Positions 48,135-61,927 of a DNA stretch of 64,000 bases are shown here, in pieces; the first letter of the stretch is position 1; every line of letters begins with the position of its first letter. The stretch is from Candidatus Pyrohabitans jungbluthii (GTDB taxonomy: Archaea > Hydrothermarchaeota > Hydrothermarchaeia > Hydrothermarchaeales > BMS3B): assembly GCA_002010065.2 (NCBI GenBank), contig MTMD02000014.1, forward strand, positions 127,167 through 191,166, given 5' to 3'. The notes beneath the pieces were generated by a model. That model saw only the letters and a list, made by a program, of their open reading frames with translations, had not been told where the DNA came from and did not search any database. The position numbers and the translations under genes are program-made.

Positions 48135-49623
<1,489 letters not shown>

Positions 49624-49809: not shown

Positions 49810-49956
49810 CTTCACCCTTTCATCATCATGGTCATCTAGTGACTGAGGCCCGCAATCTCGCGGTTGCGGGTCAATAGGCCGAGAGCGATTATGATAATCG
49901 CTCGCTGAGGCCCCGCATAGGTCTGGCTGAGTGCAATCTGACTCTGTGCCCCAGTA

Positions 49957-53009
<3,053 letters not shown>

Positions 53010-53054
53010 GAAAAGGCGCAGAGTCAGGCACTGATCAGCCAGACCTATGCGGGG

Positions 53055-53075
53055 CCTTTTATTCTTATTCGCTTG
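53055..53075 (+). terminator. T-rich rRNA operon terminator
   Basis: CTTTTATTCTTATTC immediately after the 23S processing stem. Confidence 0.5.
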
Positions 53076-59923: not shown

Positions 59924-60958
59924 ATGAGGATCGCTGTGGTCTATCTCACAAAGAATGGAGCAAGGCTTGCGGAGCGCCTCGTAAAAGCACTGCCGGAGCA
60001 CGAAGTCGAAGCCTTCGGGAAGAACGCCAGTTTTGGTACAGAGCTTTCCAAGCCGCTTTCACAGTTCTTCGCCGAAGCTTTGCGCAGCTTCGATGCAATT
60101 GTTTGTATAATGGCTCTGGGGATAGTGGTGCGCACCTTAGCAAAGCATCTCACCCACAAGCGCACAGACCCGGCGATAGTTTGCATCGACGAGCTTGGCA
60201 GGCACGTGATTAGTGTTGCCTCGGGGCACAGGGGCGCGAACAGCTTAGCCAAGCTCATCGCCTCCCGTATAGGAGCCACGCCTGTGATAACCACCTCCAC
60301 CGACGTTCAGGGCTTAGCGAGCGTTGAGGAGATAGCGGAGCGGTTTAATCTTGCGATAGACGAAGGCGACCTGAAGGCGGTTAACGCGGCGATAGCCAAT
60401 CATCGTCGCGTCGCTATTTTCACCGACCTGGCGATAGAGGTAGAGCCGTTTGAGAGTCATCCCATTGTGGAGCTTTCTCGCGAAGAATGCGACGCGTGCG
60501 TGGTTATTACCAATAAGCTCGTTCAGCTCCCGGCTAAGCCTTGTGTGCTTCTAAGACCAAAGAATATCATCCTGGGCATAGGGGCAAGGAAGGGCATTAA
60601 AAAGGAGAAGGTGCTCTCTGCAATATCTCGTGCCCTGCGCGAGGCTGAGCTGAGCATGGCCAGCATTAAGGCTCTTGCGACGATACCCCAGAAGGCAGAG
60701 GAGCCGGGAATAGCTCGCGCCGCAGCCTCGCTGGGCTTGCCCATTGTCTCTGTGCCCATTGATGAAGTTAAGCGGGTGGAGGAGCGCTTTCAGGGCAGTG
60801 AGTTTGTTAGGCGCAGCGTAGGCATAGCTGCTGTGGCAGAGCCCTGCGCCTACATAGCCTCGGGGAAGGGGAAGCTGCTCCTGAGCAAAAGAGCCTACGG
60901 CGGTGTTACAATCGCAATAGCGGAGGAGACGAGAGATGCTGAGCACAGGCATAGCTAA
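59924..60958 (+). CDS. cbiG: Cobalt-precorrin-5A hydrolase
   Basis: MALGIVVR, DPAIV, SGHRGAN, PVITTSTD, VAEPCA. Confidence 0.94.
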   Translation: MRIAVVYLTKNGARLAERLVKALPEHEVEAFGKNASFGTELSKPLSQFFAEALRSFDAIVCIMALGIVVRTLAKHLTHKRTDPAIVCIDELGRHVISVASGHRGANSLAKLIASRIGATPVITTSTDVQGLASVEEIAERFNLAIDEGDLKAVNAAIANHRRVAIFTDLAIEVEPFESHPIVELSREECDACVVITNKLVQLPAKPCVLLRPKNIILGIGARKGIKKEKVLSAISRALREAELSMASIKALATIPQKAEEPGIARAAASLGLPIVSVPIDEVKRVEERFQGSEFVRRSVGIAAVAEPCAYIASGKGKLLLSKRAYGGVTIAIAEETRDAEHRHS

Positions 60959-61730
60959 ACTCGACCGCATGCTGGGCGGAGGCTTTATCCCGGGCACAAG
61001 CGTGGTGGTGCTTGGAGCCACAGGTATAGGAAAGACCCACCTGGGCTTAGCCTTCGCCAACGCTGGCTTAAAGCAAGAAGGGAAAAGGGGCGCCATTTTG
61101 GATTTAACTCTACGCGGGGACTCGCAGCGCCACCGCGAGTATGCTCAGCGCCTTTTTAACTGGGAGCTGGAAACGCCAGCTGAGCTCGAATCCTTCACCT
61201 TGGGCGACGGACGACTGCTGAGGCTGCTCGCCAGCGAAGAAGCGCTGCCAGAGGGTGCGCTGAACCGGAGCCTTCCCAGGTTACTCCGCTTCCTGTATGG
61301 CAGCTTCGCTTCCGGGGTTAAGCGTCTGGTTGTGGACGGGATTGAGCCTCTGGGCACAGCGCCCCTGCAGGAGGAGGTGCTCGCCTACCTGCAGCGGATG
61401 GTGCGCAAGAGCTACGACTGGCTCGCCAGGGAGGCGCTGAGAGAGCGCTTCTTTGCAAGTCGCGAGCTAGTGGCTGAGCGAAGCTACGACGCCAGCGAGA
61501 TAACCATAGTGTATTTAGTAACCACGCAGGAGAGCCTTCTCAGCGAGTTGATGAAGCGGGGGCTGAGCAGCTCAGGCATGGAGGCGAACGCCACCACGGT
61601 GATCCTCATGGGGAGGGTTATGGATAGTAAAAGCGTCAGGCGCGCTCTCTACGTGGCAAAGCACCGTGGCGCTGAGTGCAGCGATGAGATAGCTGAGTTC
61701 AGGATCACAGACCGTGGGATAGAGATGTAG
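60936..61730 (+). CDS. KaiC/RecA-superfamily ATPase
   Basis: STGIAKLD, GATGIGKT, VVDG, KHRG. Confidence 0.82.
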   Translation: MLSTGIAKLDRMLGGGFIPGTSVVVLGATGIGKTHLGLAFANAGLKQEGKRGAILDLTLRGDSQRHREYAQRLFNWELETPAELESFTLGDGRLLRLLASEEALPEGALNRSLPRLLRFLYGSFASGVKRLVVDGIEPLGTAPLQEEVLAYLQRMVRKSYDWLAREALRERFFASRELVAERSYDASEITIVYLVTTQESLLSELMKRGLSSSGMEANATTVILMGRVMDSKSVRRALYVAKHRGAECSDEIAEFRITDRGIEM

Positions 61731-61735
61731 CTGAA

Positions 61736-61791
61736 GTCACCCTCACTTCGTTCGGGTAACTCCGTCACACCACAACTTCGTTGCGGGTAAC
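61736..61791. repeat. REP-like tandem imperfect repeat (same family as 19386-19436)
   Basis: GTCACCCTCACTTCGTTCGGGTAAC-TCC-GTCACACCACAACTTCGTTGCGGGTAAC. Confidence 0.6.
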
Positions 61792-61927
61792 CCTGCTCAG
61801 AGTCTGGCTTTTCGTCATATAGGGGCGCCTTTTCCCCGTAGAATACCCACTATCCGGTGAGGATGGGGTGATAGGGGCGGGTGCGGCGCCCCTATATCAG
61901 CTGGCTCTTAAGCTCATCATCGCAGGT
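61792..61927 (-). ncRNA. C/D-box guide sRNA with a long hairpin between D' and C'
   Basis: Minus strand: CCTGC stem, C box ATGATGA (61920-14), 13-nt guide, D' CTGA (61900-897), 12-bp closed hairpin, C' ATGACGA (61818-12), 11-nt guide, D CTGA (61800-797), GCAGG stem. Confidence 0.8.

Follow-up and report, generated by a model that had tools for sequence, protein, structure and literature searches.

Can an archaeal box C/D small RNA (sRNA) remain a guide when a folded hairpin of 79 nucleotides (nt) separates its D' and C' boxes? The question is raised by a locus on the minus strand of a 64,000-nt stretch of DNA from Candidatus Pyrohabitans jungbluthii (contig MTMD02000014.1, positions 127,167 to 191,166), referred to here as the window; its coordinates are used throughout. 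Judged by comparison with related genomes, the locus is probably a working box C/D guide RNA, whose D' guide directs 2'-O-methylation of C32 (Cm32) in tRNA-Lys(CUU) and whose hairpin is a tolerated insertion derived from a dispersed repeat.

The elements of the locus are listed in Table 1. An earlier sequence-only reading had parsed four boxes, two guides of normal length and a terminal stem, and had named the locus a box C/D sRNA. The parse is confirmed to the base, and the identity is borne out by the boxes, by a pattern search with a reversed control and by conservation in orthologs. A regular expression for the full C/D'/C'/D order with a terminal stem of at least 4 bp gives one match in the 1,993,079-bp genome and none in the reversed genome. 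The terminal stem CCUGC/GCAGG has 5 bp, with 3 nt (G-A-U) between it and the GA of box C. A 151-nt region folds with this stem closed (z = -2.85, 0 of 200 shuffles as good), and the 81-nt hairpin fold has an energy of -40.4 kcal/mol (z = -4.59), which 0 of 200 shuffles reach. The 12-nt arms of the insert are TATAGGGGCGCC at its start and GGCGCCCCTATA at its end, with 55 nt between them. By these sequence features the locus belongs with the archaeal box C/D sRNAs: it has the C and D boxes, the terminal stem, the GA dinucleotides of D' and C', the guide lengths, for the D' guide a target pair at the fifth guide nt upstream of the box (N+5), and a genome that encodes the core proteins. The exceptions are the short D'-C' kink-loop (K-loop), which is typical but not strictly defining, and a match to a curated covariance model.

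Table 1. Features of the sRNA locus in minus-strand order, 61927 to 61792, with the hairpins that follow it (window coordinates; G000 is this genome)
Feature	Position	Strand	Length	Basis or remark
Whole box C/D sRNA gene, bounded by terminal stem	61792..61927	-	136 nt	sequence, fold, regular expression
Leading ACCTGCG	61927-61921	-		sequence
Terminal stem, 5' strand CCTGC	61922..61926	-		pairs with 61792-61796; kept in G003, G004, L229
C box ATGATGA	61914..61920	-		RTGATGA in 9/9 double-guide orthologs and the G005 half-mer
D' guide GCTTAAGAGCCAG	61901..61913	-	13 nt	pairs with tRNA-Lys(CUU) nt 28-38
D' box CTGA	61897..61900	-		CTGA in 9/9 orthologs
D'-C' insert, multi-stem hairpin	61818..61896	-	79 nt	closed by 12-bp arms, 61885-61896 with 61818-61829
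Intact dispersed hairpin repeat copy	61855..61897	-	~43 nt	ATAGGGGCG-loop-CGCCCCTAT and C-rich tail
C' box TGACGA	61812..61817	-		TGANGA in 9/9 orthologs
D guide AAAGCCAGACT	61801..61811	-	11 nt	best match tRNA-Lys(CUU) D-loop AGUCUGGCU
D box CTGA	61797..61800	-		sequence, ortholog table
Terminal stem, 3' strand GCAGG	61792..61796	-		sequence, fold
Two hairpins of second dispersed repeat family (GTTACCC...GGGTGAC)	61736..61791	-		directly 3' of the sRNA, outside it

Orthologs were gathered by DNA search of relatives and by sequence patterns, and nine double-guide forms were tabulated, G000 included. The D box is CTGA in all nine, as is the D' box. The C' box varies only at its fourth base (C, A, G or T) and both of its GA dinucleotides are invariant. 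The D' guide core AAGAGCCA is kept in 9/9, and the D guide core GCCAGAC in 8/9 and in a half-mer found in G005. The G003 sRNA is 93% identical to the G000 copy, and the flanking intergenic DNA is far more diverged than the sRNA among these relatives. What differs is the D'-C' linker. It is 79 nt in G000 and G003, 73 nt in L229 (a metagenome contig, with the insert reverse-complemented), 52 nt in G004 and 27 nt in G009, but 5 nt in G008, 4 nt in G006, 5 nt in G019 of another family and 4 nt in G029 of a third family, which has a different D guide. Because the short linkers are found in the most distant relatives and the linkers of 27, 52 and 79 nt in the two nearest genera, the short K-loop is the ancestral form and the hairpin a later gain. 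On this distribution the D'-C' hairpin is a lineage-specific insertion.

In the G005 half-mer (L150, locus position ~1470-1520) nothing is left but a C box, the D guide and a D box, by deletion of the D' guide, D' and C'. The G005 lineage lost the guide for C32 of tRNA-Lys and kept the D guide. A 1.5-kb contig (L003/L227, G035:C127:1-1552) carries at its end the 5' part of a G004-type sRNA with 100% identity. G035 is classed in another family, and mis-binning of the contig is possible.

The D' guide forms 11 contiguous Watson-Crick pairs with tRNA-Lys(CUU) at CUGGCUCUUAA, canonical positions 28–38. In this duplex the fifth guide nt upstream of D' faces C32. This upholds the earlier proposal that the D' guide complements the anticodon arm of this tRNA and predicts Cm32. 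Against all 46 tRNAs plus 16S and 23S rRNA, 3 of 1000 shuffled guides reach 11 pairs. The only other tRNA matched is tRNA-Asn(GUU), with one mismatch, and neither 16S nor 23S rRNA gives a match closer than two mismatches. Genome-wide, exact 11-mer matches of either guide, besides the tRNA and the gene itself, fall in coding sequence only (C1:40768 and C13:26910). Of the five relatives searched, four (G003, G004, G006 and G009) have a tRNA-Lys(CUU) of 100% identity; that of G019 is 96% identical and carries U in place of C28. Each of the nine orthologous D' guides retains an unbroken run of 8 or more pairs around C32; the changes are at guide position 1 and beyond position 10. No covariation of guide position 1 with tRNA position 28 was seen, the tRNA being invariant in family f1 and the guide position G or U.

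These results bear on the explanation that the boxes are a chance arrangement around a repeat and that there is no sRNA gene. It would fit the lack of an Rfam match over threshold and the small number of C/D sRNAs in the genome, but repeat-free orthologs keep the boxes and guides across two families, a third family shares the D' guide, and so few shuffled guides pair as well with a tRNA. This explanation can hardly be correct and is already contradicted by the conservation.

Cm32 is established on both tRNA-Lys species of Haloferax volcanii, where it is assigned to a TrmJ/YfhQ-type protein (PMC2584109; this and the papers cited below are drawn on for individual passages). In a review, archaeal Cm32 is attributed to TrmJ, and Cm56 of Pyrobaculum aerophilum to a C/D guide (PMC6313347). 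The SpoU methylase family PF00588 has 0 matches in the present genome, which is 99.95% complete, and is present in 14/14 control genomes. Thus the lineage, as far as its gene content tells, appears to be without the TrmJ-type SpoU methylase that makes Cm32 in other archaea. In a survey of 38 genomes of the class, PF00588 is over cut-off in 8 (families f3 and f8), and the C32 guide is in 0/8 of these and in 10/30 of the genomes without PF00588. This distribution fits weakly with a guide standing in for the enzyme, the relatives not being independent and 20 genomes having neither.

The D guide is less clear. The sequence-only reading had assigned it to tRNA-Lys(UUU), with a modification at about U29, and this assignment fails. 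The anticodon arm of that tRNA is UCGGC-CUUUUAA-GCCGA, with a stem of UCGGC/GCCGA and not CUGGC; positions 2–11 of the D guide match none of the 46 tRNAs with one mismatch or fewer. The best match in a stable RNA is the start of the D-loop of tRNA-Lys(CUU), with nine Watson-Crick pairs from guide position 1, which puts the U just 5' of G18 at N+5. Nine pairs are reached somewhere in the tRNAs, 16S or 23S by 20 of 1000 shuffled guides; the match is more notable since it falls on the same tRNA as the D' target. Two rival sites each give nine pairs including one G-U. One is position 2326 of this 23S gene (AGUUUGGCU, just 5' of the GGGGCGG P-loop sequence), with the fifth base of the match near window position 52287. 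The other, GGUCUGGCU, belongs to the pre-23S processing stem (5' strand); this site is conserved in G006 and present with one change in G005. The D guide of G019, AAGGCCAGACC, fits the D-loop less well, with 8 pairs and a G-U. The core GCCAGAC is kept in 8/9 orthologs and G005 retains no guide but the D guide, which makes a real target for it probable. The D-loop of tRNA-Lys(CUU) has about even odds of being that target. In Pyrobaculum, the second guide is an orphan in 115 of 144 tRNA-targeting sRNAs (~80%), and sRNAs with both guides on one tRNA are rare (PMC6009581).

A separate observation concerns the 23S flanks (window 53020-53070 and 49910-49935). The 3' strand of the processing stem holds CAGCCAGACC, which includes the D guide core GCCAGAC. 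The D guide could compete for the 5' strand, GGUCUGGCUGA.

The origin of the insert is seen within the genome itself. When the 161-nt region was used as a query in the search of relatives, it gave 18 matches in G000, nearly all on query positions 43–94. A profile built from 15 copies (nhmmer) finds 22 copies at E<1e-3 in 17 loci of G000, and 16 of the 17 loci lie between crude open reading frame (ORF) calls. The repeat unit consists of ATAGGGGCG, a 7-nt loop, CGCCCCTAT and, after these, YACCCCWTCCKYACC. The loop is CCGCACC in one sub-type and CCTTCCC in the other, the tails varying to match, and units are often found as head-to-tail pairs or triplets. Other small hairpins are nested within some units. 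Among 32 distinct copies from four genomes, gathered by a degenerate regular expression that partly pre-selects the stem columns (column 2 excepted), 98.6% of the cells in the 9-bp stem are paired. Two stem pairs are changed on both sides, from G-C to A-U in six copies and from C-G to A-U in one, and there are six G-U or U-G cells, all on the C-rich strand. The stem pattern has 18 matches in G000, 11 in G001, two in G006, one in G008 and one in G003, where the sRNA is the match; six other family members and a viral collection have none. Of the ten G001 loci, seven are in the same place as a G000 copy and three are not. G006 carries a two-unit block where G000 has 7 nt. A unit of G008 lies 3 nt after tRNA-Ala in the rRNA spacer, and one of G001 lies 3 nt after tRNA-Arg.

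Within the sRNA, the 5' 43 nt of the insert (61897-61855) are an intact unit, scoring 48.2–48.5 bits with nhmmer. The 3' half has no other copy in G000 and matches the unit only in its last 13–15 bases, in inverted sense, at 11.2 bits. The insert ends are perfect 13-nt inverted termini, ATATAGGGGCGCC and GGCGCCCCTATAT. No clean target-site duplication was seen in a comparison of filled and empty repeat sites. The Y1 transposase (RAYT, PF01797) has 0 matches in G000, as against 6/14 control genomes with one, and TnpB was not found in the genome. The linker hairpins of G004 and G009 are not repeats, the sRNA copy being the only one in their own genomes. Two other views of the repeat were tried and rejected. 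As a regulon, its seven downstream genes have no common theme (a dehydrogenase, AIR-synthase-like, Cdc6/Orc1, UPF0047, a methyltransferase, BioY and HxlR). As a REPIN, an inverted pair of units, the insert lacks a whole inverted unit in its 3' half, and the other loci are head-to-tail and not inverted pairs.

The strongest evidence that the sRNA tolerates or needs a shape, and not a sequence, comes from L229. All four of its boxes, its two guides and its terminal stem are the same as in G000, and its 73-nt insert is inverted. When reverse-complemented, the L229 insert matches G000 in 65/79 columns and G003 in 66/79, as against 49/79 and 49/80 when aligned directly. It still folds as a hairpin within a closed terminal stem. 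The non-repeat half is inverted too and therefore the whole insert behaves as one piece, either by a flip between its inverted ends or by two insertions in opposite senses. The L229 RNA would carry the complement of the G000 insert. Thus, from this comparison, the shape of the hairpin is kept and the sequence of the RNA is not. In the DNA reads of four runs, the contigs break at the repeat, and among them none at 85% likeness or better joins D' to C' without an insert. One contig in X7 and two in X8 join 61850 to 61897 on opposite strands; these would fit an inverted insert, but also mis-joins at the repeat.

The sequence-only reading had also suggested that the hairpin is a second functional module, a protein-binding site or an additional guide. 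This part is not supported, the insert being absent or different in relatives, in part a genome-wide repeat, and reverse-complemented in L229. Read by eye, the insert shows no ACA box, no pseudouridylation pocket and no extra box pair. A broader form of the idea holds that the hairpin is selected at the RNA level, either as a stem-closed kink-turn (K-turn) that stabilises C'/D' at high temperature or as a site for a protein that recognises shape. A linker hairpin is present in all double-guide members of two genera (G009, G004, G003, G000 and L229), each of the two substitutions in the outer 3' arm of G003 turns a pair into a G-U or U-G wobble as seen on the sRNA strand (read by eye), and the wobble cells of the repeat family also lie on one strand. 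However, the sequence of the insert is not conserved, the hairpins are of three unrelated types with one of them in both orientations, four relatives manage with 4–5 nt, and the hairpins of G004 and G009 do not close directly onto the boxes. A selected module is therefore unlikely. In our reading the insert is a tolerated, repeat-derived passenger and neither an additional guide nor a site at which a protein recognises a specific sequence.

The archaeal splicing endonuclease acts on substrates other than tRNA, and the insert forms a hairpin of its own, always at one position. The insert might then be removed from the transcript like an archaeal intron, leaving an sRNA with a short linker. But where the hairpin joins D' and C' it has no bulge-helix-bulge. 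Its base consists of 12 pairs without a break, the first internal loop measures 3 x 5 nt in place of the two staggered 3-nt bulges, 4 bp apart, of that motif, and the inverted variant in L229 folds differently at its base. Removal as an intron is very unlikely.

Alternatively, the insertion may have disabled the gene, whole or in its C'/D' half, leaving a decaying pseudogene whose boxes have not yet drifted. A linker of 79 nt is far beyond the usual archaeal range, neither a clear TATA box upstream nor a listed RNA run backs its transcription, and G005 has lost the whole D'-guide half. Against this, the insert is common to at least three diverged lineages (G000, G003 and L229) with boxes and guide cores intact in each, the C' box varies only at a non-critical base, and the sRNA has been kept while its flanks diverged. 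Decay is quite unlikely on this evidence.

If the locus is a tolerated insertion in a working gene, its particle can be sketched. The RNA, once expressed, would be bound by L7Ae at the terminal C/D K-turn and at the C'/D' motif, and Nop5 and fibrillarin would complete the particle. A D' guide duplex of 10–11 bp would set C32 of tRNA-Lys(CUU) in the fibrillarin site for 2'-O-methylation. A repeat copy would have landed in the D'-C' loop, and the complementary 3' arm would close the whole insert. Folding on itself, the insert would bring D' and C' together and point away from the guides and the particle, with the guide spacing of 13 and 11 nt untouched. It would be tolerated in either orientation because a self-folding hairpin still joins D' and C' and projects away from the guides. 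L7Ae accepts K-turns in which stem I is replaced by a loop (PMC1865073), and the D'-C' linker sits exactly at the place of stem I.

The genome has the proteins for such a particle. The fibrillarin and Nop5 genes are adjacent at C1:84772-86108 and L7Ae-family genes are also present; the core proteins score 307.7 bits (PF01269), 200.2 bits (PF01798) and 104.8 bits (PF01248).

Several observations weigh against a working guide RNA of this kind. If fully paired, the 12-bp stem leaves 1 nt before the GA of C', as against 3 in a canonical K-turn. A standard K-turn is not guaranteed because of this spacing, and its geometry would need fraying or a two-base slip in the UAUA/UAUA end. The 9-bp hairpin of the repeat unit and the closing stem compete for one 5' arm. 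A U-to-C change in the D' guide of G003 cuts the pairing to 9. As for the enzyme, 20 of the 30 SpoU-less relatives of the class are also without the guide, and absence of PF00588 is no proof that another Cm32 enzyme is absent. An Rfam scan of the window at gathering thresholds gives no match at the locus. Around the locus, in a scan at E<=10, the best relevant match below threshold is snoPyro_CD, which scores 13.9 bits where the cut-off is 45 and covers the 5' half only (61882-61924); this Pyrococcus C/D model has no room for the insert. A further Rfam scan of the region (L001) brought no addition. A clear TATA box at the expected upstream distance was not seen in G000 (sequence read by eye), and no RNA run containing this DNA is listed among the sequencing runs searched. 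Few other canonical C/D candidates were found in the genome, one double-guide match, which is this locus, and three looser C...D matches, by regular expressions that are strict and not a census. The C/D system may thus be little used in this genome.

One of the three looser matches, C5:18940-18995, looks genuine. The number of canonical candidates is small for an organism with 63% G+C in its rRNA. ARAGORN finds 46 tRNA genes. One of its predictions is a 94-nt 'tRNA-Ser(aga)' at C8:133463-133556, and tRNA-Trp was not found in the genome. The sequence has CCA at the anticodon position followed by ~20 extra bases and is probably an intron-containing tRNA-Trp, with an intron too short for a C/D guide.

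The sRNA lies between a gene for a KaiC-like ATPase (60936-61730, plus strand) and a gene for a PAS/GAF sensor (62149 onward, plus strand), on the opposite strand to both. The window also holds a 16S - tRNA-Ala - 23S operon. The rRNA G+C contents are 63% and 61%, in a genome of 50–53% G+C, and the public records with the same sRNA are metagenome-assembled genomes titled Candidatus Hydrothermarchaeota or Methanobacteriota archaeon. The host of the guide RNA is a thermophilic euryarchaeon.

Other features of the repeats stand apart from the sRNA. The second family in Table 1 has conserved ends, with a U-G wobble on the minus strand, and an interior that varies and yet remains self-complementary. 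Its pattern matches G000 at 23 places and a reversed control at none, and two copies stand directly after the sRNA; others are at C8:249165-249227, C2:515241-515267 and C12:7090-7117. Four of the 23 are within 250 nt of a tRNA gene, compared with 1.3% of the genome. Hairpins similar to these also follow the sRNA in G003, G004 and L229. In the literature searched, no description of either small hairpin repeat family was found.

Units of the first family are found near promoter-like sequences. In at least 10 G000 loci the first unit lies 7–11 nt after a TATA-like box (TTTAAATA, TTTAAAAT, ATATAA and similar, read by eye), for example at C1:61800-61860, C11:21740-21760, C2:256570-256600 and C10:9986-10020. 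Transcription at those loci would start inside the hairpin loop, and therefore units would be at the very start of transcripts or across promoters. At C7:50555-50811 (L011) of G000, a repeat cluster lies directly upstream of the Cdc6/Orc1 gene, where archaeal replication origins usually lie.

The unit layout, a 9-bp hairpin followed by AUCACCCC...CCUCACC (window 61855-61872, minus strand, for example), resembles helix 45 and the anti-Shine-Dalgarno tail GGAUCACCUCCU of 16S rRNA, whose 3' end is at window ~49600-49623. At the BioY locus the downstream gene has GGUGAGGA in its ribosome-binding region, and the repeat tail UCCUCACC is its complement. All this may be coincidence, Shine-Dalgarno sequences all being similar. 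A speculative extension, with a small chance of being right, would make the 43-nt units and the GTTACCC...GGGTGAC family an archaeal counterpart of the repetitive extragenic palindromic (REP) sequences and bacterial interspersed mosaic elements (BIME), spreading without an IS200-type transposase. They would settle preferentially in or near structured-RNA genes (the sRNA K-loop, the G008 rRNA spacer after tRNA-Ala and the 3' flank of G001 tRNA-Arg) and flip between inverted ends. Transcribed copies, including the one in a guide RNA, could serve as decoys for Shine-Dalgarno sequences or for factors of the 16S 3' end.

How does the locus compare with known systems? Its boxes, guides of 11–13 nt, N+5 pair, terminal stem and anticodon-arm target are those of the archaeal tRNA-targeting C/D sRNAs of Pyrococcus and Pyrobaculum and of the guide in the tRNA-Trp intron. 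Unlike these, it has a D'-C' linker that is 79 nt long and folded, not a short K-loop; the typical archaeal length is taken from the orthologs above and from general knowledge of the class. C32 of tRNA-Lys(CUU) was not seen as a target in main-text passages of the Pyrobaculum paper (PMC6009581), whose supplementary target tables may list it or D-loop targets. If the D-loop match is real, both guides act on one tRNA, which is the rare arrangement in that genus (PMC6009581). Some eukaryotic C/D snoRNAs have a long D'-C' region able to form a stem. For eukaryotic 15.5K/Snu13 a canonical K-turn is required, and the protein is often not bound at C'/D' at all (PMC1865073). Archaeal L7Ae binds K-loops, and because of this the short loop is the archaeal norm. 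The insert is also not an archaeal H/ACA guide hairpin (read by eye): its internal loops, of 3 x 5 and 5 x 4 nt, make no large two-sided pocket, the upper stem lacks a GA/AG motif, and what comes after the stem is UGACGA and not an ANA box.

The proposed methylation resembles Cm56 of P. aerophilum, in which a ribose methylation made by a stand-alone SPOUT enzyme (Trm56) is assigned to a guide where the enzyme is missing (PMC6313347). The position here is 32 and not 56, the enzyme is of the TrmJ/SpoU family, and the lineage is another; the only basis for a replacement is that PF00588 is absent and the guide present. If true, this would be the second guide RNA, after Pyrobaculum Cm56, to replace a stand-alone tRNA methylase.

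The repeat family is like the bacterial REP, BIME and REPIN elements (PMC3733652) in being short GC-rich palindromes, almost all intergenic, in tens of copies, single or clustered. Also shared are compensating stem changes, G-T pairs, variable or nested loops and patchy occurrence among close relatives (PMC3733652). It differs in being archaeal, the phyla named for REP in the passages of PMC3733652 used here all being bacterial. Its (A/G)TAG end is base-paired with CTAT (columns 2–5 with 23–26) and is not an unpaired GTAG tag, a conserved C-rich tail of 15–17 nt follows the hairpin, and its clusters are head-to-tail without a Y1 (RAYT/IS200) transposase or TnpB. Thus the family resembles REP and BIME in habit and lacks their defining marks, the RAYT and the unpaired tag. 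The sRNA insert has the terminal inverted repeats of a miniature inverted-repeat transposable element (MITE), but only the 43-nt unit recurs, without clean duplications and without those two genes; MITE-like termini are limited within the family to the sRNA insert. In print, the closest connection of small repeats to C/D sRNAs is found in P. calidifontis (PMC6009581), in a MITE-like element that is likewise a small, mobile-looking non-coding repeat. That element carries the boxes and multiplies the sRNA, whereas here a box-less repeat lies within the internal loop of a single-copy sRNA.

New in this locus is an internal loop that hosts a repeat-derived palindrome of 73–79 nt in both orientations. 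New as well are a Cm32 guide, predicted by pairing, where the TrmJ-type enzyme seems to be missing, and what may be two guides on one tRNA. An archaeal C/D internal loop can absorb a foreign palindrome of this size, in either orientation, with the boxes and guides still under selection, which makes a natural test of how much the geometry of the C'/D' K-loop matters to L7Ae and Nop5. The comparison also exposes two small hairpin repeat families in an uncultured class of thermophilic archaea. Set beside the known archaeal box C/D sRNAs, the gene is ordinary in kind and unusual in form.

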